Below are positions 2 to 40,848 of a stretch of DNA of 64,000 nt, one piece after another. The notes under the pieces were generated by a model. That model searched no databases and was not told the origin of the DNA. It saw only the letters and a program-made list of their open reading frames with translations. The DNA comes from a virus (taxonomy: Duplodnaviria; Caudoviricetes): IMG/VR virus record IMGVR_UViG_3300028048_001497, positions 110,541 to 174,540 of that record; one strand, written 5' to 3'. The translations under genes were made by a program, and so were the position numbers. The first letter of the stretch is position 1; the number at the start of each line of letters is the position of its first letter.

Positions 2-2395
2 AAAGCATTTACAAATCCAAGAAAAACACGTAGATTTGCAAAATTAAGACAACAATTAAAAGAACATAAAAAACTAACTAGAAGAAAGTTTCAAAAATAT
101 CAAAGAGAACGTAAATTATATGTGCAACAAATAAAAAAAGCGAGAGCAATACAAAAGCATAATCAAATAATTCGAGCAAGAATACAAGCTAAAAGAAAAC
201 TTGCTAGAGAAAAACTTGCACAACATTTGAAATGGTCAAAAAGATTTAAATATGCAAAACGTAGTGGCTTGTTAGCAATTGGAGCTGCGTTTTTAACAAG
301 TTTATTTGATAAAGATGTAAGAAATAGTACTATTGGTTCTATTGATGCAGGTTTAGCAGGTGCTTTTATTGGTGGTGCTTTAGGTGGTACAAAAGGAGCT
401 ATGCTTGGTGGTGCAATTGGAGCAGGTGCGTCTGAATTGTTACAGACAAATGATGAAAAAGCAAGTCAAGCATTGGCGAGTGAAATGAAACAAGAAGCAG
501 AAATGCAGAAAGATGATAGTTTAGCAGGTCTAGTTCTTGATTCACCATCTAAAAAACAAACAGAAACGCAACAATATAAAGCTAGTCATGCAGATGAACA
601 ATCTAAAAAACAATCAAAACAATTTAATCAATATGTTAATTACAAAAAAGCAGAAACAGAAGCATATAACAAAGAAAAAGAAATGGAAATACAACGTAAA
701 ACCATTGATGATTCATCTGAAATGATTAATGCGACAAATGATTTGTATACACAAGAAAAACGTCAAAGTTTAGAATCTCATGGTATTCAATGGGGACAAG
801 TTGCAACTCATGAAAAACAAATTTGGCAAACAACTTATGAAAATTTCTTAGCAGTTTATCAAGATAGAAAAATGGCATTGGAAATGGCTGCGAAAGCACT
901 CATAGCTTGTAAGAGTATGGGTGGCGGTAGTGGAATAAATGGTGCTCCAACATCATTTGTTGAATATGGTAATAGAATGTTACAAAGTGCTCCACCAGAA
1001 ATACGTCAAATGATAAAAAATGCGCATGATAAATATCCAAATGTTCCTGAGTTTGTTATTGCGGCAATTGCCGCACATGAAAGCGGATTTCAAAATGTAA
1101 TGAATGGTCAAGGCTCTGGTGCAACAGGTATGATGCAAATAATGCCTGGTACAGCCGCAGGTGTTGGATATGGAGATACAGATAGATTACTTCATGACCC
1201 ACAATATAATTTAATGGCAGGTACAGCATATGTAAGCACTTTAGCATCTAATTATGATTCATGGGCAAAAACTATAGCTGCATATAGTTTAGGTGGTGGA
1301 GCGATTGATGGTTTAATTAAAAAATATGGAAATGATTGGTATAGACATTTGGAAGAAGCAGATGAAGCGTCAGGTGTACCTGGTCAAACAACAAATTATT
1401 TAAAAAGTTTGGGATTAATGGATGAAAATGGAAATTTAAAACCTGAAAATGCAAGTTCCGTATCTATATCTCCTAGTGTGTCTAGTCCTCCAGGCGCAGA
1501 ATATAGTGGGGATTTAGGTGTTGATTTTTCTCATTTAAGATGGAGTGGATTCGTAGCAGAAAAAGGATGGGACCATAGTTATGATGCACATGCAAATTCT
1601 GCACAATATATTGCCATGGATATTGGTAGATTAACTCCAAAAGCGAAACAAAGATTAAATGCATTAACACAATTATATGCAAAATATAGTAATGGTGGAA
1701 CATTAGAATGGAACGTAGCTACATTAGGGCATGACCCTGGTACGGCACATACTACAGGAAGAAAAATTGATATTGCTAGTGGTGGAGTTAATGAAGAAGC
1801 ACTAATTAAAGCAGGTAATGAAGCTCATGTTGGTGTAGATAGAGAAGACCCTTATCACTATGATTTGTTATTAGAAGGTACAGGTTCAAATCATTTGGGA
1901 CCAGTTATAACAGAAAGATTTTCTTGGGATGATGCAAATTCAAATGGTGATTCAGGAGCAAATCCAAAATTAAATCTTAATTTGAATCTTGAAGATATAA
2001 AACCAAAAACATTAAAAGAACAATGGGATGACAGTTGGAAAGCGTATAAAAAAGCAGTTCATAATGGTAAAGCAAAGCATGGTGCTCTAGTTAATGGTGT
2101 TTATATTGATACATCAAAACCATATCAATCTATTGAAGCAATAGGAAAAGAAATAAGAGAAAAAAATAGAAAACAATGGGGTGGATTGGAGGATTATGTA
2201 AAAGAAAAAGATAAACAAAGTAATTTTAATGGAATAAAACAACAACAAGAAGTATTAGACCATGAAGATATTCAAATGAAACTAACCAGAGAACAAATGG
2301 ATTCAAATCAAATTGTTAATTTTGTTAAGGATGTTAAAGACGCTTTAAGTGCTTTGTATGAACCATCAGGCTTTAATGTAGCTTGTGTTGTATAA
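2..2395 (+). CDS. Tape-measure-like tail protein with lytic transglycosylase (SLT) and M15/LAS-like peptidase domains (5' truncated by window)
   Basis: Frame is open from nt 2. SLT motifs AIAAHESG, GATGMMQIMPGTA, YNLMAGTAY, AAYSLG; H-x6-D...H motif (AHTTGRKID...EDPYHYD); C-terminal segment paralogous to 3378..9452. Confidence 0.75.
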   Translation, partial: KAFTNPRKTRRFAKLRQQLKEHKKLTRRKFQKYQRERKLYVQQIKKARAIQKHNQIIRARIQAKRKLAREKLAQHLKWSKRFKYAKRSGLLAIGAAFLTSLFDKDVRNSTIGSIDAGLAGAFIGGALGGTKGAMLGGAIGAGASELLQTNDEKASQALASEMKQEAEMQKDDSLAGLVLDSPSKKQTETQQYKASHADEQSKKQSKQFNQYVNYKKAETEAYNKEKEMEIQRKTIDDSSEMINATNDLYTQEKRQSLESHGIQWGQVATHEKQIWQTTYENFLAVYQDRKMALEMAAKALIACKSMGGGSGINGAPTSFVEYGNRMLQSAPPEIRQMIKNAHDKYPNVPEFVIAAIAAHESGFQNVMNGQGSGATGMMQIMPGTAAGVGYGDTDRLLHDPQYNLMAGTAYVSTLASNYDSWAKTIAAYSLGGGAIDGLIKKYGNDWYRHLEEADEASGVPGQTTNYLKSLGLMDENGNLKPENASSVSISPSVSSPPGAEYSGDLGVDFSHLRWSGFVAEKGWDHSYDAHANSAQYIAMDIGRLTPKAKQRLNALTQLYAKYSNGGTLEWNVATLGHDPGTAHTTGRKIDIASGGVNEEALIKAGNEAHVGVDREDPYHYDLLLEGTGSNHLGPVITERFSWDDANSNGDSGANPKLNLNLNLEDIKPKTLKEQWDDSWKAYKKAVHNGKAKHGALVNGVYIDTSKPYQSIEAIGKEIREKNRKQWGGLEDYVKEKDKQSNFNGIKQQQEVLDHEDIQMKLTREQMDSNQIVNFVKDVKDALSALYEPSGFNVACVV

Positions 2396-2404
2396 AAATT
2401 TTAT

Positions 2405-2779
2405 CGTAAGATAAGACCCCCACTTCTAAGCTACGAGGTAGCCGTTAGGCTACCGAGTAACGAAAGTGGGGGATGACTAATACTAACTCTTGACTATTTT
2501 TACAAATAGTGATACAATTAAATCAAAGGAGGTAAAACAAAATGCTAAAAGCGTACAAATTCAAATATCTTGAATGAAGGTAAAAGGCTACTAAAAGTAG
2601 CCTAAACCATATAAAAACTGTACCGTAGGGCTTACGGAATCAGTATAAAACTAAGCCTATGGAGATTGTGTAAGACGTAAAAATGTATGGCTACGCCATA
2701 CCTCATGCGGTTTCACCGCATACGCTACGGTCTGAGAAGTAGGAATCCCCCCACCTCTTTAGGTGGGGGAGGATGTCAA
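2405..2779 (+). mobile_element. Non-autonomous IS200/IS605 (tnpB/IS1341-type) mini-element, copy 1: tnpB internally deleted, omegaRNA region retained
   Basis: Follows TTTAT. Left-end hairpin ccccactt...aagtgggg; SD+ATG 2542 gives MLKAYKF (TnpB N-terminus) joined to NILNEGKRLLKVA* (TnpB C-terminus, other frame); right end ggaatccccccacctctttaggtgggggaggatgTCAA; near-identical to 33004..33378. Confidence 0.85.
2490..2518 (+). promoter_or_regulatory. sigmaA-type promoter inside mini-element copy 1
   Basis: TTGACT-N17-TACAAT with extended TG; conserved in copy 2. Confidence 0.7.
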
Positions 2780-2799
2780 TTGATATAATATTTCCAATA
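2580..2799 (+). ncRNA. Putative TnpB omegaRNA (reRNA) scaffold plus flank-derived guide, copy 1 (boundaries approximate)
   Basis: Hairpin-rich region from the tnpB 3' end to the TCAA right end; guide would begin TTGATATAATATTTCC. Confidence 0.65.
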
Positions 2800-2864
2800 A
2801 AATTATCTATATTTTAATTAGATGATAAAAATTTTTCATAATAGGAAGGATTTGACATAATATT

Positions 2865-3275
2865 ATGGCAACTAAAAATAAAAATGATAAATTGATTTCT
2901 GAAATGCTTGCAGATTTGATTGACCCCAGTGAGGAAACAGAAGTTGTAGAAAAGTATGGTAAGAAATGGGCTATGCGTCCGATTTCTTCACAGGAATATC
3001 TTGAAGCATTAAAGGAAAGTCAGAGTTATAATAAAGATGATTTAACTCGTATGTTCGGTATGCAGATTAGTATTCTTAAACATGCTTTGGTTTCTGTAAA
3101 CGATTTGGTTCTTACAGATGAACAAAAGACAAAGGTTCTAAATGCAATTAGTCCTGCCGTTCTTACAACATTGTATAATGAGTTTGAAGTTATTCGTCAT
3201 AAGAATGATGATGAAATTTCAAAGATTGAAAATGCTTCAGCAGAAAAAACAAAAAATGACACAATTGATGCTTAA
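2865..3275 (+). CDS. Probable tail assembly chaperone
   Basis: 136-aa acidic protein immediately upstream of the tape measure gene; RBS ggaagga. Confidence 0.6.
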   Translation: MATKNKNDKLISEMLADLIDPSEETEVVEKYGKKWAMRPISSQEYLEALKESQSYNKDDLTRMFGMQISILKHALVSVNDLVLTDEQKTKVLNAISPAVLTTLYNEFEVIRHKNDDEISKIENASAEKTKNDTIDA

Positions 3276-3377: not shown

Positions 3378-6300
3378 ATGGCTGAACAGATTGTTACATT
3401 ATCTGATACACAGATAGAACAAACAAAAGAAAAGTTTGAAAAACTTACAAAAGAAATTAATCATTTTAATGAACAATTAAATACATTAGTACAAAAATCT
3501 TTTGATAACAATAAATTCCAAGAATTATCGGTTGTAATTGAAAAAGTAGCACAGATGAAAAACAATCAGCAGGAATTTATGGATTTGTTGATGTCTGATT
3601 TGTCAGATAAAAGTTTACAACCATTATATGATGGATTAATCAATCAACGTAATATAGCTTTAACTATTATTTCTAGGATTGGCAAAATTAATGAAAAATC
3701 ATCAAAGAGTTTAGACGATTTTACAAAGAATGTTGTTGATACATTAACAAAAATTTCTGATGATTTTGCTAAAAACGTTGAAGATACAACAGATGTAATT
3801 CAAAATTTATCTTCTAATTTTAAAACAAAAGAAGATAAAATTTTAATAGACAGAAAAGTTTTTTTGAATACAATGCTACAAATGTATTCAGATTTAAAAC
3901 AAGTTGATATTGCAAAACTTGATGCTTTAACAAATCTTAATGAAGAAGCAGCTAATAAAGTTATTAATAGATATTCTGGTCAGTCAAAAGCTAAATTAAC
4001 CAATTTAATTAAGCGTGTTACAGAAGAAGTTAATCAAACTGTTCGAGATAATACTGTTACAGATGGTTCTTTAAGTTTACTTGCACAAATAAAAGAAATT
4101 CGAGAATTAAATATTAATAATTCAGGTGACGTTAGAGACGTAACTAGAATGAGTAATATTTTGACTCGTTTAGCAGATGTTAATAAAGACAATCTGGAAC
4201 AAAGAAAAAATGGATTACTTAGTTCTGTTTCATCTGGTAATTTTTCTGATTTTGCAAAAATAGATAAATTTGTTACATTATCTACAGAAAAAGCAACCAA
4301 AAATATGCAAGAAATTGTATCTATGAGTGAATCCATTAGTAATAGTAATCCTGATAATCCAACTGTTGCAAAAATAAATAATGATAAAATAGTACCACAA
4401 ATTCAAACTTTGATAGAAGATGTTTATAAAGCAAATTCGGAAGTTTTAACCTCTGCTATAACAGAATTTGGCAATCAATTTGACGAAGAAGCACATGGTA
4501 ATGATGAAACTCATTATAATAATGTTCAAGCATTAAATTTGTCTAATGCTTTTACTATGTCAAGAACATCAAATTATAATAATTTCCGTTTTAATAATGC
4601 TTTCAATGGCATGTTTTCTTCTGATACAGAATTAAATCAATTATACAACAATTATAACAGAAGTACATATGTCTATAATAATGAGATTAAAAGTATATTA
4701 AGTAATGAAGAAAACACATCAAAAAAATATGGTATAGATAAAAATGATTTATTGTTGAATGATATAAAATCAGGGAGATTATCTTACGGATTAGGGAGTA
4801 GCAATCAAAATCTAATACAATTATCTCACGAATTTAATCAACGTAAATTATCTGGAGCAAATAAACATGATGAAGAAACTGCTAAAGACATGAGTAAGAT
4901 GTTGGCAGAAGCTATTCATCAAACGTATCAACAGATATATGTTACTTCTCGTTTTGACCCAGATTCTAAATTATTAAAAACATTAAAAGAACAAGCAAAA
5001 CAATTAGAAGAAGAAAAAAATGATTTAGACGAAAGTATCAAGAACAAAGAACTGCAAAAACACCATAGTTTATTTAAAGATATAAAAAGTGTAGCAGGAT
5101 TTTTTGGTAAAGCACTTGCTTTAATGGGGCTAGGTGGACTATTTTCTATTCATAGTTGGATGGATAAGATTAAAAATAGAGCCAATGCTAATGGTGAAAT
5201 GTTGTATAACAACTATTTAGCAAATGCTTCTATTGGTGCTCCCATGTCTCAAAATGCGAATGAACTTGTATTTGGATTGGGACAAAATCTTTATACTGCT
5301 TCTTATGGACAAATAGATTTTGGTGTTCCATCAGCATTTTATAGAAGTTTAGCTGGTTCTATATTAGGTGGTCAAGGTGGACAAAAAGCAAGTGATTTAA
5401 TGAATTTTACACGTGCTTTTGTTGTACCGTCACAATTATATGGAATTGATGCAGGTACATTTTCACAAGGGATAAATGCGTTTTATTACGAAAATCGCAT
5501 GTCTGCAAAAGAAACGATTGGTATGATGTATCGTGTTATGGCAGACGCTAAAAAAGCACAAATACCAATTAATCAATACATGAATCTTATTTCGCAGATG
5601 GTAACTCAATATAGAACATTAGGTTATAACGGAAAACAAACTGTTGATAACATGAGTTACATGATTGCAGAAGGTTATCGTGCAGAAGATGCAAAATCTT
5701 TTATTGGACAGATGTATGATGCACAACAAAACTTTTCTGCAAATTTATATAATTCTGTCTATTCTGTTATTGGCGGTGGCGCGGATAACATGTGGCAGGG
5801 TATGTATGCTAATTTAAAAACTGTAGATAGATTTGGTAATCCATATAAAGATAGACAAAAATATGTTGGTTCTCAAATGTTAGCTAAATTGCATATGGTT
5901 ACAGATATGTTTGACAATCCTATTATGAAACAATTTGGTGCATATCAGGTAACTAAAGGAATGGGTTTGAATATGAAAAATTCAGATGCTATTCTATATG
6001 CGATAGAAGATGGTGATGAATCAAAACTTGAAACACTTTTTGAAGGAGCACAACAAGACGAATTAAGCAAAAATCAAGCTGCAACAGAAGCTACTAAAGG
6101 TTTCACGCAGGAATTACAACAAGCGTCTAGCTTATTGTCAGAAACACAAAAGAATAAAGCAGAAATGATGGCTTCTGCTAATAAATTATCTGATAATTTT
6201 GTTGGTCATGGACAAGCTATGCAACAATTTGAACAGATAGCAGAAGAAGGTATCAATAAAGTAGAGCAGGTAATGGAGCAATTAATTGCTTTGGTTGGAC

Positions 6301-9300
6301 AAATACCTGATTTAATAAAAAAATCCCCATTATTATCACAAGCATTTATGTTTGTAGGCCAACATCCATTTTTAACATTGGCAGGTGGTTTGGTAGGATG
6401 GTCATTATTAAAAAATGGTGCTAAACACGTTTTTAATTTTGCAAAAGAAAAAGCATTTGGTCATTGGAATGATGTAAAACATAAAGATGTAACAGACGAA
6501 GTTAAAGAAACTACACCGTCTGAAACAAAAACATTAAAAGAAGAAACCCCAAAATTAAACAATAATAAAGGTTTCTTTAATAATATGAAATCCAGATTAG
6601 CGGATTGGAAACCAAAGTCATTTAATAGTAAATCATTATCTAGTTTAACAAAGAAAATCCCACATAAGGGATTGATGGGTGTTGTTGGAACAGGTATGAC
6701 ATTAGGGGCTATGTTATTGGGAAGTTCTTCTAGTGCTTCTGCAAATCCTTCTGAACAGGGGGACGAGAATCAATCAGAAGAACAAGATGATGAACAAAGC
6801 ATAAATTCTATGTATATTATGTTCAAAACTGGTAATTCAAAAGTTACTTTCTATAACAAAGACGGTAAATTAATTGATGTAACAGGAAGAACAGGCATTG
6901 AATCGTGGTTAATGCAAAATGGATTTAGTTTGTTTAGTGCATTAACTGTTGCTACTGCTGCAGGTGCTAGTGGAAAATTTGCATATGACAAACTTAAACA
7001 GTTTAAAGAAGCAAAATTTCCAAAATTTCCTAGTGTAAAAATGCCAAAAGAAATATCTGAAAAAGATATACAAAATACAGAAAAATTAGCTAATCCATCA
7101 ACAAAACCATCAATGCTAGATGCAACTCTTACTTTTTTGGGTTTAAAACCGGGTTCTGAAAAAGGTAAACCAAAAGGAAAAGAAAAATTATCTGAAAAAG
7201 AAAAAGTACCAAAAGAAAGTAATTGGTCTAAATGGGGTGGAAGATTATTTAATTTCCTTACTGTTGCTGGTTCAGTTGGTAGTGAATTATTATCTGATGA
7301 TGATAGAACAACAGGACAAAAAGTTGTAGCAGGTGGAATAGAAGCAGGTACGGAATTAGCTACATATAAAGTTTTGGATAAAACAGTAGGTAGAATACCG
7401 TATATTGGCAAACCATTAGCTTTATTATTGCCTTTTGCTGATTCTTTATCAGGTACTAATATAATGTCTAAAATATCAGAAAAAGCAAAGGCATTTGCAG
7501 GTGTACAGGCTAAATATAAATCTGGTAATGAAATGTTCCTTGATGCAATGAATAATCAAACAGGAATGACAGGTGCAAGTTTTGAGAAATTAATTCATTC
7601 TGAAACTGCGCAAGGTAATTATTTTAGAAGTTATTTATCTGCAAACGGTATTGAATATGACAAATTAAATGAACAAGAAAAATTATTCTTTAAATTGCAG
7701 ATGGATGAATTAGCATTTGTGCAACAAAGTGTTGCTAAAGTTCTTGCATTAGCTATTATTGCATTAAAAAATGCACAAATATCAGGTAATTTTAATTTAA
7801 ATGATGATGACGATTCTATCTTTAAAAAAGATGGAAAGAAATTAAAAGATGATATTATTCAAAAAATAAAACAAGATGCTCAAGATTCATTTCCAGAAGG
7901 TGGTCATGATTTTGAGAATATTAATCAAGCTGCACATTTTGTAAAATATGGTCAACGTTTATATGAAAAATTAAACGATGAAGGGTATGATTCTGAAAAA
8001 TTAAATCAATTAGCAAGTGCGATTACTTATGCTAAATATAGCGTTTGGGCTATGAATGGTTTTCAAGATTATGATTTGGATTATTATGGAACAACATGGA
8101 CAATTACGAACCCATATGAAGATGATTCTTCTGATAGAACTGAAAGCGAAGATATTGCAGATACCACCTATTCTGGAGGTATAACACCGGTACTTAAAGA
8201 AATTTGGGATAGGTGTCATGGAAAATCTTCGGAAGAAATATCTCGTGAACAAGCTCAAAAAATTAAAGAAGATTTACAAGAACAGTATGGCGAAACAATT
8301 GCAGAACAAATATCAAGTGGATATAATAATTTAATTTTTGCTGGTTGGGTTGGTCCTGTAAAAAAACAATATATGACTGAATATGCACAAGAAAAAATGG
8401 AAAATCCTGATAATATGGAAGATGATACACAACAAAATTCAAATCAAGCTCCAGATTTTTCAAATGCGAATGCTGGAGCATATGCAAGTATGGTAGAACA
8501 AGCTAAAATGATTTCTCAATTAACTGGTTTACCAGCAGATATAATATTTGCGCAATTAGCATTTGAAACAGGTCAAAATCCATCTGATATGGCATATTCT
8601 GATAAAATTCATAATTATGGTGGGACTACTGTTGATATGGGGCATGGAAAAAATGATAGTGGCTTTGGTATTTATGTAAACAATAAAGAGGGCGCAGAAG
8701 CATATGTAAAAGGTACAGTCCCAGTTAGAGACCAATTACCACAATTAAAGGAAGCAATCGCACAAGGCGATTTGAAAAAATATGTACATTTATTAAAATA
8801 TGGTATGGAAGAGTCTGGTAAAGGAAATTATCAATATTTTACTGGCGATGAAAATGAATATTTAAATGGTATAATGTCTTATTTATCATTAGCTCATAAA
8901 TTAGGATTGAATGGTGTAACACCTAATGGTACATTTAATTTTTCAAATTATACTCCTAGAACTTTAAAAGAACAAAGTGATAAAGCATGGGAAGATTATA
9001 GAAAAGCAGTTGGGAATGGAAAAAAAATAAGCGGTTATTTGGTCAATGGTATTTACATTGATACAAGTAGGCAATATCAATCTGTTGAAGAACAAGGTAA
9101 AAAATTACGTGAAGCTATGAGGGATGGTTCTTATTATACAGACCCACAAAAAGTATATCAAGAATTAGACGAACTAAACAAGAAAAATGCAAAGAAAATT
9201 GTTGAAGATACTAATACTCAAATCAAAAAACAACAAGAAAGTCAAAAACAAATACAAGAAATGGCAAAAAAAGAAGCAGATGCAAAAAAACAACAACAGG

Positions 9301-9452
9301 AACAAGAAAATAAAGATAAGACTGTTTGTAGTTTGTCTGTTATGGGTACATTAAAACAAGGAATAGAATTAGAACAAGTATTAGATGTTATTAAAGCTAT
9401 TGCGCAAGCAGACGGATTTAATACTGATACGAAAATGGTTCAACAGGGGTAA
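3378..9452 (+). CDS. Tape measure protein with C-terminal GH73/FlgJ-like glucosaminidase domain
   Basis: 2024 aa, helical with hydrophobic Gly/Ala segments; IIFAQLAFETG...HNYGG...YFTGDENEY motif; follows the chaperone. Confidence 0.8.
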   Translation: MAEQIVTLSDTQIEQTKEKFEKLTKEINHFNEQLNTLVQKSFDNNKFQELSVVIEKVAQMKNNQQEFMDLLMSDLSDKSLQPLYDGLINQRNIALTIISRIGKINEKSSKSLDDFTKNVVDTLTKISDDFAKNVEDTTDVIQNLSSNFKTKEDKILIDRKVFLNTMLQMYSDLKQVDIAKLDALTNLNEEAANKVINRYSGQSKAKLTNLIKRVTEEVNQTVRDNTVTDGSLSLLAQIKEIRELNINNSGDVRDVTRMSNILTRLADVNKDNLEQRKNGLLSSVSSGNFSDFAKIDKFVTLSTEKATKNMQEIVSMSESISNSNPDNPTVAKINNDKIVPQIQTLIEDVYKANSEVLTSAITEFGNQFDEEAHGNDETHYNNVQALNLSNAFTMSRTSNYNNFRFNNAFNGMFSSDTELNQLYNNYNRSTYVYNNEIKSILSNEENTSKKYGIDKNDLLLNDIKSGRLSYGLGSSNQNLIQLSHEFNQRKLSGANKHDEETAKDMSKMLAEAIHQTYQQIYVTSRFDPDSKLLKTLKEQAKQLEEEKNDLDESIKNKELQKHHSLFKDIKSVAGFFGKALALMGLGGLFSIHSWMDKIKNRANANGEMLYNNYLANASIGAPMSQNANELVFGLGQNLYTASYGQIDFGVPSAFYRSLAGSILGGQGGQKASDLMNFTRAFVVPSQLYGIDAGTFSQGINAFYYENRMSAKETIGMMYRVMADAKKAQIPINQYMNLISQMVTQYRTLGYNGKQTVDNMSYMIAEGYRAEDAKSFIGQMYDAQQNFSANLYNSVYSVIGGGADNMWQGMYANLKTVDRFGNPYKDRQKYVGSQMLAKLHMVTDMFDNPIMKQFGAYQVTKGMGLNMKNSDAILYAIEDGDESKLETLFEGAQQDELSKNQAATEATKGFTQELQQASSLLSETQKNKAEMMASANKLSDNFVGHGQAMQQFEQIAEEGINKVEQVMEQLIALVGQIPDLIKKSPLLSQAFMFVGQHPFLTLAGGLVGWSLLKNGAKHVFNFAKEKAFGHWNDVKHKDVTDEVKETTPSETKTLKEETPKLNNNKGFFNNMKSRLADWKPKSFNSKSLSSLTKKIPHKGLMGVVGTGMTLGAMLLGSSSSASANPSEQGDENQSEEQDDEQSINSMYIMFKTGNSKVTFYNKDGKLIDVTGRTGIESWLMQNGFSLFSALTVATAAGASGKFAYDKLKQFKEAKFPKFPSVKMPKEISEKDIQNTEKLANPSTKPSMLDATLTFLGLKPGSEKGKPKGKEKLSEKEKVPKESNWSKWGGRLFNFLTVAGSVGSELLSDDDRTTGQKVVAGGIEAGTELATYKVLDKTVGRIPYIGKPLALLLPFADSLSGTNIMSKISEKAKAFAGVQAKYKSGNEMFLDAMNNQTGMTGASFEKLIHSETAQGNYFRSYLSANGIEYDKLNEQEKLFFKLQMDELAFVQQSVAKVLALAIIALKNAQISGNFNLNDDDDSIFKKDGKKLKDDIIQKIKQDAQDSFPEGGHDFENINQAAHFVKYGQRLYEKLNDEGYDSEKLNQLASAITYAKYSVWAMNGFQDYDLDYYGTTWTITNPYEDDSSDRTESEDIADTTYSGGITPVLKEIWDRCHGKSSEEISREQAQKIKEDLQEQYGETIAEQISSGYNNLIFAGWVGPVKKQYMTEYAQEKMENPDNMEDDTQQNSNQAPDFSNANAGAYASMVEQAKMISQLTGLPADIIFAQLAFETGQNPSDMAYSDKIHNYGGTTVDMGHGKNDSGFGIYVNNKEGAEAYVKGTVPVRDQLPQLKEAIAQGDLKKYVHLLKYGMEESGKGNYQYFTGDENEYLNGIMSYLSLAHKLGLNGVTPNGTFNFSNYTPRTLKEQSDKAWEDYRKAVGNGKKISGYLVNGIYIDTSRQYQSVEEQGKKLREAMRDGSYYTDPQKVYQELDELNKKNAKKIVEDTNTQIKKQQESQKQIQEMAKKEADAKKQQQEQENKDKTVCSLSVMGTLKQGIELEQVLDVIKAIAQADGFNTDTKMVQQG

Positions 9453-32981: not shown

Positions 32982-33003
32982 TTGTTGACAAAACAGTTTT
33001 TAT

Positions 33004-33378
33004 CGTAAGAGAATACCCCCCCACTTCTAAGCTACGAGGTAGCCGTTAGGCTACCGAGTAACGAAAGTGGGGGATGACTAATACTAACTCTTGACTATTT
33101 TCGCAAATAGTGATACAATTAAATCAAAGGAGGTAAAACAAAATGCTAAAAGCATACAAATTCAAATATCTTGAAAGAGGGTAAAAGGCTACTTTTGGTA
33201 GCCTAAACCATAAAAAACTGTACCGTAGGGCTTACGGAATCAGTATAAAACTAAGCCTATGGAGATTGTGTAAGACGTAAAAAGGTATGGCTACGCCATA
33301 CCTCATGCGGTTTCACCGCATACGCTACGGTCTGAGAAGTAGGAATCCCCCACCTCTTTAGGTGGGGGAGGATGTCAA
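33004..33378 (+). mobile_element. Non-autonomous IS200/IS605 mini-element, copy 2
   Basis: 375-nt near-identical repeat of 2405..2779; preceded by TTTAT, ends TCAA; ATG 33143 gives MLKAYKFKYLERG*. Confidence 0.85.
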
Positions 33379-33398
33379 CCTATATAATAAAGATACTA
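33180..33398 (+). ncRNA. Putative TnpB omegaRNA scaffold plus guide, copy 2 (boundaries approximate)
   Basis: As copy 1; guide would begin CCTATATAATAAAGAT. Confidence 0.65.
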
Positions 33399-33519
33399 TA
33401 AAATGTATTATTCAGGACTAATCGTTAAACATCCAAAAACATACGCAAGTATGTTTAAATGTGAATAAAATACACTTTTGTACACATTTGTATATGTTTT
33501 TAGAAGGAGGATAAGAATT

Positions 33520-39581: not shown

Positions 39582-39627
39582 TTATGAGAAAAAATTTAAC
39601 ATTTTCCTTTTTCTATAGGTAAAAAAT

Positions 39628-40182
39628 ATGAGTATTGGAATTTATAAAATAGAAAACTTAGTAAATCATAAAATGTATATTGGACAAAGTATTAATATTG
39701 AACGAAGATTTCGTGAACACAGATATGCTTTAAAACATCACAAACATCATAATCCATTATTGCAACAAGACTATAATAATGGACATAAATTTTCATATCA
39801 AATTGTAGAAATTTGCCACGTTCATGAATTAAACGAAAAAGAAAAAGTTTGGATAAGTTTTTATCGTTCTAATATTATTGGCTATAACTATGATAATGGT
39901 GGAATAGTAAATAAAAAGTATACAAATAAATTTAATGCTTGGTTTAAAAATCATGATAATAATAGTAAAAAAATAGCAAAAACAAAAAGCAAATACAACG
40001 AGGAAATTATAAATAAGGCTAAACTAGCTTTGTTTATGGACATGAATAAACACGATATTGTAACTATGCTAAATGTTGAATATGATTATATTCGTAGACT
40101 AATTCATCGTAATATGAAATATGCAGATAGTATTTTGCCACAATTAAATGATTATATTAAAAATTATCGTAAAAAATTTTAA
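39628..40182 (+). CDS. Free-standing GIY-YIG homing endonuclease
   Basis: GIYKIEN...YIGQS...RRFREH...E...GYN. Confidence 0.9.
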   Translation: MSIGIYKIENLVNHKMYIGQSINIERRFREHRYALKHHKHHNPLLQQDYNNGHKFSYQIVEICHVHELNEKEKVWISFYRSNIIGYNYDNGGIVNKKYTNKFNAWFKNHDNNSKKIAKTKSKYNEEIINKAKLALFMDMNKHDIVTMLNVEYDYIRRLIHRNMKYADSILPQLNDYIKNYRKKF

Positions 40183-40194
40183 CAGGTAAATAAT

Positions 40195-40848
40195 ATGAAA
40201 GATTTTACATGGGAAACAGATAAAGAAGATTTACAATTCAAAAGAGATTTCCTAGACAAAAAGATTGATGGAGTAAAATATATAAAATCACTTATAAAAG
40301 TAAAAAAAGTAGGTAATATATACACTGCCTTATGTCCTTTTCATAATGAAAAGACGGAATCTTTGAGAATTTATCCTGAAGGATTTAAAAATTCGGATGG
40401 AAAAGCACAAGACCATACATCTTGGTTTTGTTTTGGTTGTAAAAAAGGTGGAGACGTTGTTAAATTTGAAGAATTGTTCTTTGATTTAGATAACGCAGAA
40501 GAAGCCTGTAGTTCATTATCTAGGAAATTTCATTTAGAATATTCGGGTGACAATGAGTTATCCGAATTACAATCAAAACTAGATTCAATAAAAAGAACAA
40601 GTGAAAGTGTTATGTCTTTACAAGAGATAAATTTCATTTGTTCCATTACTTGTAGGAATTATTTGCAATTTGTACTTAATAATTATCCTAATTTATTCGA
40701 TGAAGAATATAATAAGATACAAAGTGTGTATCAAAAATTAGATGAACACCTTTTGAAAGTAAATGCCCATCAAGCGAAAAATTTTATTAAATTAACACAA
40801 AATACAATAAAAAATTACAAAAAACGCTTGACATCATTGAAATCATAG
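40195..40848 (+). CDS. CHC2 zinc-finger (primase N-terminal) protein lacking TOPRIM
   Basis: CPFHNEKTES...WFCFGCKKGGD; only 217 aa. Confidence 0.8.
   Translation: MKDFTWETDKEDLQFKRDFLDKKIDGVKYIKSLIKVKKVGNIYTALCPFHNEKTESLRIYPEGFKNSDGKAQDHTSWFCFGCKKGGDVVKFEELFFDLDNAEEACSSLSRKFHLEYSGDNELSELQSKLDSIKRTSESVMSLQEINFICSITCRNYLQFVLNNYPNLFDEEYNKIQSVYQKLDEHLLKVNAHQAKNFIKLTQNTIKNYKKRLTSLKS

Follow-up and report, generated by a model that had tools for sequence, protein, structure and literature searches.

What is a 375-nt element without a protein gene doing directly in front of a -10 box in a large phage genome, and does the same box in the same register behind a second copy mean that the element's predicted guide RNA is aimed at promoters? 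The DNA in question belongs to a 174,540-bp IMG/VR virus record of 29% G+C (35% complete according to CheckV), and the window analysed here is its last 64 kb; plain positions refer to the window, and those marked G000:C1 to the whole record. A sequence-only reading of the first copy had suggested that it could be a guide-expression cassette working in trans with a TnpB, or with a nuclease-dead TldR-like protein, on promoters of the form TTTAT-N4-TATAAT. Here, we trace both copies to their parent element, their relatives and their unoccupied insertion sites. The two repeats are non-autonomous, protein-less derivatives of a TnpB-only IS200/IS605-family insertion sequence in a large bovine-gut phage.

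Copy 1 is a tnpB-deleted IS200/IS605-family mini-element of the PATE/MITE type at positions 2405-2779 (375 nt, + strand), read directly from the sequence and compared with a full-length element elsewhere in the record. It is preceded by the target/TAM motif TTTAT (2400-2404, with TTAT as its core) and ends in TCAA (2776-2779), after which comes a 16-nt flank, TTGATATAATATTTCC (2780-2795, + strand), that is the predicted template of the guide. The left end (LE) has a subterminal hairpin, CCCCCACTTC...GAAAGTGGGGG (2417-2472), kept in all mini-elements, with the tetranucleotide AAGA (2413-2416) on its 5′ side, and the right end (RE) comprises GAAT (2743-2746), a hairpin (2747-2769) and TCAA as the cleavage site. 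The hairpins at both ends are imperfect and subterminal, there are no terminal inverted repeats, and both hairpins are conserved in all copies.

Between the ends lies a promoter, TTGACT (2490-2495)-N17-TACAAT (2513-2518), that matches the consensus at 10 of 12 positions and has a TG ahead of its -10 hexamer, followed by the tnpB ribosome-binding site (RBS) GGAGG (2528-2532) and a stub open reading frame, MLKAYKFKYLE plus a stop codon (2542-2577, with its ATG at 2542). The deletion junction is near 2561-2564, and what was the C-terminus of TnpB, NILNEGKRLLKVA plus stop (2564-2605), is in a frame that differs from that of the stub. The omegaRNA scaffold region (2576-2779), supported by a 17-member alignment and its covariation, runs from the last tnpB codons through RE. 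All of these features are on the + strand, and each of those listed in the sequence-only reading (ends, promoter, RBS, omegaRNA region, the MLKAYKF stub and the C-terminus in another frame) was recovered when positions 2100-3100 were read again.

Copy 2 (33004-33378, + strand) is also 375 nt long, is 96% identical to copy 1 and has the same deletion junction; both copies carry both ends, the TTGACT-N17-TACAAT promoter, the RBS, a stub of 11-13 codons and the full omegaRNA region. Its predicted guide-template flank is CCTATATAATAAAGAT (33379-33394, + strand). Both junctions of copy 1 are bridged without difference by contigs from two independent bovine-gut DNA runs, and the insertion is therefore real and not an assembly artefact. 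The joint expected from precise excision (2404 to 2780) was not seen in contigs of four sequencing runs; a joint from 2181 to 2841 is present in two DNA runs and probably derives from a diverged relative. Differences in depth between parts of the region and parts uncovered in the RNA runs are not interpretable from contigs and were left unused. To the left of copy 1 is a gene (122-2395) whose 757-aa product has an SLT lytic transglycosylase domain, and to its right a 136-aa open reading frame and then a 2024-aa protein that has no Pfam or PHROG match (3378-9452 region).

The parent is present in the same record. A full-length element at G000:C1:91929-93353 (minus strand; positions 1030-2454 of locus L005), approximately 17.2-18.6 kb before the start of the window, is 90% identical to the mini-element in LE and 93% identical in RE. 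Its gene, which begins MLKAYKFRLYPNEEQ, encodes a 370-aa TnpB with Pfam domains OrfB_IS605, Cas12f1-like_TNB and HTH_OrfB_IS605, and residues 3-363 of this protein align full length with ISDra2 TnpB (E 9e-84). The D-E-D triad is intact, in motifs GIDLG, IAIENL and HDRDINA, and both CxxC pairs (CSSC...CPKC) are there, such that a cognate, intact-looking TnpB is available in trans, as had been supposed from copy 1. The element sits antisense in a + strand open reading frame with repeated Cys-rich 'YGGRGI' modules, and taking out its 1425 bp reopens a 299-aa frame. Another boundary, next to a TTTAT 22 nt further out and giving a 292-aa frame, is less likely, because both the LE alignment and the pairing of tetranucleotide and target oppose it.

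This full-length copy is preceded by TTAA and not by TTAT, and its left tetranucleotide is AAGT where AAGA, AATA or AAAA is found elsewhere. The LE tetranucleotide and the target pair through their fourth bases in both settings – A with TTAT in the mini-elements and T with TTAA in the full-length copy – and the joint change to AAGT and TTAA fits the pairing rule of IS608. Because the full-length copy follows TTAA, the TAM preference of the resident TnpB may not suit the mini-elements at TTAT. The motif TTTAT itself, which the sequence-only reading had named as target and TAM, is borne out in its core: TTAT precedes all eight mini-element copies, and also the three or four full-length relatives that have a left end of this type, among them L012, L024 and L023b.

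Three further TnpB genes are present in the record (G000:C1:1388-2623, 39593-40810 and 98454-99575). One of them, TnpB-2 (373 aa), is 48% identical to the cognate TnpB, keeps its D-E-D residues and has its own related omegaRNA that ends in GTGTCAA; TnpB-3 also has an intact D-E-D triad. TnpB-4 (G000:C1:1388-2623, 411 aa) reads VVGYNK where the canonical RuvC-II Glu would be, has lost the cysteines of the zinc finger, and from its sequence could have a rearranged site or be inactive; it is only about 22% identical to the cognate TnpB over a short stretch, and no link between it and the mini-element omegaRNA was found. A profile search of the 174 kb with the omegaRNA region returned the three copies and the related RNA of TnpB-2, and nothing else. 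The search for a parental tnpB and tnpA was answered in part: the tnpB is in the record and a Y1 TnpA (PF01797) was not found in its 174,540 bp, 35% complete as it is. Genes for such a transposase do occur in related phages (records G004 and G005), where an autonomous element with both tnpA and tnpB has a left hairpin like that of the mini-elements. The window also holds an OMEGA element of a second kind, with a HEARO RNA (57476-57705; Rfam RF02033, 124.6 bits) that runs into a 434-aa IscB-like open reading frame with RRXRR and HNH domains (57687-58991). A 24-nt core taken from the RNA region had no match among GTDB genomes, and the closest bacterial TnpBs, all from Bacillota, are at most 50% identical over their full length and are accompanied by no close DNA match with the element, so that they point to no particular host.

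The same 24-nt core, used as a probe, led to 13 metagenome loci and three viral contigs, which were sorted by reading and by BLAST comparison with the mini-element and with the full-length copy. Full-length relatives are L012, L013, L014, L021, L024, L032, L033 and a second element in L023/L027, and six other loci from the metagenome scans are mini-elements or truncated. The deletion junctions of the mini-elements are of at least three types. Type A, with the deletion after MLKAYKF, is shared by copies 1 and 2, L023/L027 and L026; type B (L025 and L030) has RBS AAAGGAGG joined to AAAGAAGGTAAAAGG near the tnpB stop; and in type C (L022) the deletion runs from just past the -10 hexamer directly to the first conserved hairpin, so that the promoter is fused to that hairpin almost directly. 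Whatever its junction, every mini-element has kept a promoter of the form TTGAYT-N17-YACRAT together with a 3′ region of 177 nt or more. L029 is a 5′-truncated remnant of 152 nt with only the right part, and is surely dead.

The type A junction is identical in the two copies of this phage, in L023/L027 and in L026, at flanks that are all different, and within this lineage identity falls to approximately 85% between contigs with the helices still paired. An internal deletion thus removed nearly all of tnpB and left LE, promoter, RBS, the structured 3′ omegaRNA region and RE, and the resulting mini-element was afterwards copied into two or more TTAT positions of the phage genome, with the same lineage found at other places in other contigs. 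A mini-element and a full-length copy share a genome in this phage and also in contig Ga0256405_10001949 (L022/L027).

How precise losses of tnpB could recur is suggested by a near-repeat in the full-length copy (L005), where the RBS, AAAGGAGGTGAAAC, resembles AAAGAAGGTAAAAG just before the tnpB stop; the RBS sequence AAAGGAGGTRAAAC likewise resembles AAAGAAGGTAAAAG. The type B mini-elements L025 and L030 are the exact product of recombination between these near-repeats, and the element is in this sense predisposed to a precise loss of its gene. Retention of the omegaRNA in independent deletions may for this reason reflect A-rich microhomology in part, and not selection.

INPHARED phages gave a single partial match of 64 nt; exact scans of IMG/VR gave no match for a 35-nt omegaRNA core and, for the end of RE, only a solo hairpin in L010 (IMGVR_UViG_3300032007_001757, 4738-4779). 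This hairpin is a perfect palindrome of 42 nt in which the terminal 32 nt of RE are contained (TTGACATCCTCCCCCACC TCTTT AGGTGGGGGAGGATGTCAA), with the rest of the element absent. When flanks were compared with the fetched loci by tblastx, only the element itself matched.

An alignment of 17 family members (A2) supports a conserved RNA structure of 45 consensus pairs, with 96.6% of cells paired. Compensatory two-sided changes occur at 17 of the 45 pairs, as against 5.7 +/- 1.7 in shuffled alignments (none of 500 shuffles reaches 17) and 1-7 covarying pairs in a control with the register slid. The conserved RNA overlaps the last tnpB codons, ends exactly at TCAA and is whole in the mini-elements, and by its position this 3′ RNA is the predicted TnpB omegaRNA. 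Rfam has no family that matches the region under either gathering or permissive thresholds (HEARO, elsewhere in the window, being the one match), and the assignment accordingly draws on position and on TnpB homology. Contigs from RNA libraries of two runs, from two studies, span 2750-2980, from the RE hairpin across the junction and into the downstream gene; they show neither ends nor strand nor TnpB binding, and the libraries may contain DNA. On the minus strand of copy 1 there are three terminator-like sites with a hairpin and a T-run (2585-2701), and a 700-nt scan gave five such sites against 0.3 expected; they arise because an A-run precedes each omegaRNA hairpin. Antisense transcription entering the element might stop there.

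What the -10 box means is best read from the insertion sites themselves. The right flank of copy 1, TTGA-TATAAT (2780-2789), contains an extended -10 element, TGnTATAAT (TG at 2781-2782, TATAAT at 2784-2789), of the downstream gene's promoter, and that of copy 2 reads CCTA-TATAAT in the same register, as the sequence-only reading had observed of both flanks. At copy 2 a promoter is split, with its -35 hexamer TTGACA (32985-32990) and the first 13 spacer nucleotides, ending in the TAM TTTAT (32999-33003), to the left (32985-33003, + strand) and its -10 hexamer TATAAT (33383-33388) to the right. Virtual removal of the copy joins TTGACA, a 17-nt spacer and TATAAT into a perfect consensus promoter, of which this strand has about a dozen more, upstream of a replication module (helicase and helicase loader). 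Between copy 2 and the downstream gene is also a leader of approximately 100 nt, ggactaatcgtta...tttttagaaggagg (33416-33510), that is missing at the same locus of the sister phage G005, although G005 has it upstream of other genes, as does G006 in two cases; this may be a small 5′ leader of a mobile or regulatory kind.

Both sites are found empty in relatives. The site of copy 1 is unoccupied in L080 and L081 (281-kb record, 98% complete), where the sequence reads ...AAAAATTAT/TTCATATAATAATATC... (a slash marking the insertion point), i.e. ATTAT/TTCATATAATAATATC, upstream of an 85%-identical homologue of the gene downstream of copy 1; the stretch homologous to 2400-2404 and what follows it is ATTAT/TTCATATAAT. 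The site of copy 2 is unoccupied in L082, which has TTGACA-aattttgaTTTAT/CTTA-TATAAT, i.e. TTGACA-N8-TTTAT/CTTA-TATAAT, and thus an intact homologue of the promoter, TTGACA-aattttgatttatctta-TATAAT, ahead of the small gene and the replication module that also follow copy 2. These sites were located through the neighbouring genes, exact IMG/VR scans with the exact empty sites of copies 1 and 2 having had no match. In all of them TTAT is joined straight to the right flank, scarless and with no target-site duplication, and the boundaries of both copies are therefore exact.

Both mini-elements, then, lie inside native promoters of the sigma-70 type, 4 nt upstream of the -10 box, and in each case the TATAAT behind the element is ancestral, belonging to a native promoter as its -10 box; its presence in the predicted guides is a by-product of landing in promoters. 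The relatives' empty sites match the guides at 12 of 16 and 13 of 16 positions, with two mismatches each within the first 12 nt, which makes cutting of those particular sister phages doubtful.

Insertion in or beside promoters recurs in the family in other registers. L025 is at a -35 hexamer (TTTAT/TGACA...N17...TATAAT), L030 has TATAAT at +2, L014 is just behind a -10 hexamer, and a further copy at a loose contig end (TTGACAAAATCCTTTAT/) is promoter-associated in yet another register. A rough ORF call puts the coding share of this phage at approximately 93%, which leaves AT-rich promoter DNA between genes as the place where insertions at TTAT are tolerated, and one may speculate that easy melting of such DNA also favours a single-strand transposase. 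On the + strand of the record with the elements taken out there are 109 intergenic TTTAT sites, of which three are followed by N4-TATAAT, and the mini-elements occupy two of these three; the chance of this is naively about 5e-4, or about 0.02 when conditioned on the first site; the coincidence of register is real, but the sample is small. The third such promoter (G000:C1:39351-39395; TTGCAC-N17-TATAAT), whose TTTAT is unoccupied, is followed after approximately 10 nt by the TnpB-3 element. Of the five IS605-type insertions in the fragment, three are therefore in or beside promoters.

These observations are best joined if the mini-elements are guide-only elements of the PATE type that a Y1 TnpA mobilises in trans and that the resident TnpB, likewise in trans, probably maintains or spreads, a reading to which we give a probability of about 0.62. 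A TnpA supplied from elsewhere would move the mini-element to TTAT sites; transcription from the element's own promoter would then pass through the scaffold into the flank, making the mini-element's own right flank the guide. The resident TnpB would load this RNA and cut TTTAT plus flank, which is the empty allele as it would arise after excision or be brought in by co-infecting relatives that have no insertion, and recombinational repair would restore or spread the mini-element. Read-through from the element promoter probably also replaces the promoter activity that the insertion disrupted.

The proposal from which this analysis started is that the guides were selected to read the -10 box, and that TnpB or a dead TldR-like protein binds TTTAT-N4-TATAAT promoters in general, for control or exclusion. 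It takes its appeal from TATAATA at +5 to +11 in both copies and from the two occupied sites of three among 109, as well as from TldRs, which do target promoter elements, are defined by the loss of at least two catalytic residues and have a TAM-proximal seed of about 6 nt (PMC10705468); TnpB-4, lacking its canonical RuvC-II Glu and zinc-finger cysteines, might seem a partner for it. When right flanks were tabulated, TATAAT at +5 to +10 was found in none of the 15 other family members (none of six mini or truncated loci and none of nine full-length relatives), and the flanks are unrelated to each other. Agreement between the two guides is limited to positions 4-11; positions 1-3, next to the TAM and within a seed of TldR length, all differ. 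A search with TTTAT plus guide that allowed up to three mismatches found, in the record and the fetched loci, no site besides the element's own disrupted one, and the best other site in the record has four mismatches. The cognate TnpB has all three catalytic residues, against a nuclease-dead partner, and TnpB-4 is both distant from it and unlinked to the omegaRNA. Since TATAAT is moreover ancestral at both sites, as the empty sites show, we reject targeting of promoters by a TldR-like system and consider it very improbable that the guides were selected for the box they contain.

Two other accounts deserve more weight, the larger part of it going to inert relics. The mini-elements might be ordinary TnpA-moved MITEs that have no guide function left, and in which the omegaRNA survives through its overlap with RE and through A-rich microhomology. 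Junctions of types B and C do lie in A-rich near-repeats, the L029 remnant and the solo RE hairpin of L010 demonstrate that decay occurs, and no excision joint was seen in the mapped contigs. Ends of the TnpA type require subterminal hairpins only, as established for IS608, and more than that is retained here: each of the seven distinct mini-elements has its promoter and a structured 3′ part of 177 nt or more, helices remain paired in a junction A lineage that has diverged to approximately 85% identity, and a matching TnpB is in the same genome both here and in Ga0256405_10001949. We therefore judge loss of all guide function unlikely. It is improbable, in turn, that the element is in the first place a co-opted mobile promoter or switch, whose outward promoter drives the downstream module or whose reversible excision toggles a strong native promoter, with guide function secondary. 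Several features would suit such a role, in that copy 2 splits a perfect TTGACA-N17-TATAAT promoter upstream of the helicase and helicase-loader module, all mini-elements with a recognisable downstream gene share the direction of that gene, the element has no terminator-like site on its + strand and three on its minus strand, and the RNA-library contigs cross RE into the downstream gene. However, the native promoter (12 of 12 consensus positions) is better than that of the element (10 of 12) and is intact in a relative, co-orientation is expected anyway with 139 of 147 genes on one strand (rough ORF call), and the same mini-element family occurs at unrelated places in other contigs. One way in which the element could have rescued a retained -10 box, by RE supplying a new -35 hexamer, is ruled out by the sequence 17 nt upstream, AGGTGG.

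If the mini-elements are indeed guide-only elements served by the resident TnpB, they might in addition be extra guide cassettes that give one phage TnpB several homing specificities, such that co-infecting sisters without the insertions are cut at the promoters of the tail and replication modules and are converted or excluded. This we put forward tentatively, as a possibility that we think more likely false than true. Were it correct, it would be an RNA-guided analogue of the marker exclusion effected by homing endonucleases, played out between large rumen phages, and guide-only derivatives would keep forming through the near-repeat that the RBS shares with the 3′ end of tnpB. Should the guides act in trans, a modular homing system with several guides would be at work in large phages, and inheritance among phages that co-infect could be biased by it. 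The locus is a clean natural example of an RNA-guided transposon that sheds its nuclease gene and keeps a predicted, promoter-driven guide RNA, one for which the parent, deletion variants of several independent origins and empty sites in sister phages are known together. It also offers a compact natural design of promoter plus scaffold, as well as a caution, in that the -10 box in a 'guide', striking as it looks when two flanks show it, is fully explicable by the history of the insertion sites.

IS608 of Helicobacter pylori is the mechanistic model for IS200/IS605 ends, and the mini-elements follow it closely. GAAT stands 5′ of the RE hairpin and the cleavage site is TCAA exactly as in IS608, a tetranucleotide of the form AA-N-N stands 5′ of the LE hairpin, and insertion is 3′ of TTA-N with no duplication. 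The target differs, being TTAT or TTAA here and TTAC in IS608, with the fourth base of the left tetranucleotide changed to match, and there is no tnpA in the mini-element or in the 174-kb record. With ISDra2 TnpB and its reRNA (PDB 8H1J, 8EXA) the system shares full-length TnpB homology, the D-E-D triad, an RNA that overlaps the tnpB 3′ end and runs to RE, and a 5-nt T-rich TAM equal to the transposon target; this TAM is TTTAT (with TTAT as its core) here and TTGAT in ISDra2, the protein has 370 aa as against 408, and the mini-elements are without one.

Like the TldR systems (PMC10705468), these are phage-borne, TnpB-derived guide RNAs whose targets would overlap -10 or -35 elements. TldRs, however, are fixed beside the gene that they serve, whereas the elements described here are mobile cassettes with both ends whose cognate TnpB has kept D-E-D, and their overlap with promoters is explained by the insertion site.

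The closest counterparts are the PATE-like IS605 mini-elements of Geobacillus stearothermophilus, which 'often encode omegaRNAs' that need TnpB in trans and which were described by Meers et al. 2023 (PMC10055086) together with a demonstration of the role of TnpB in homing and retention; the term PATE (palindrome-associated transposable element) was first used in Haloquadratum (PMC3119063). Both groups have both ends and no protein gene, their omegaRNAs would have to rely on the TnpB of another element, and a TnpA acting in trans is the mobilising enzyme, presumably so for the phage elements; omegaRNA-bearing PATE-like mini-elements as such are already known (PMC10055086). The differences are in setting and in history: those of Geobacillus are in a bacterial chromosome and those described here in large bovine-gut phage genomes, where all deletion variants retain the promoter of tnpB, two copies are inside phage promoters, at least three deletion junctions are independent, and empty sites are present in sister phages. 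What is new is therefore the phage setting, the independent deletions that have all kept promoter and RNA, the near-repeat within the parent element that favours such deletions, and the paired occupied and empty promoter sites.
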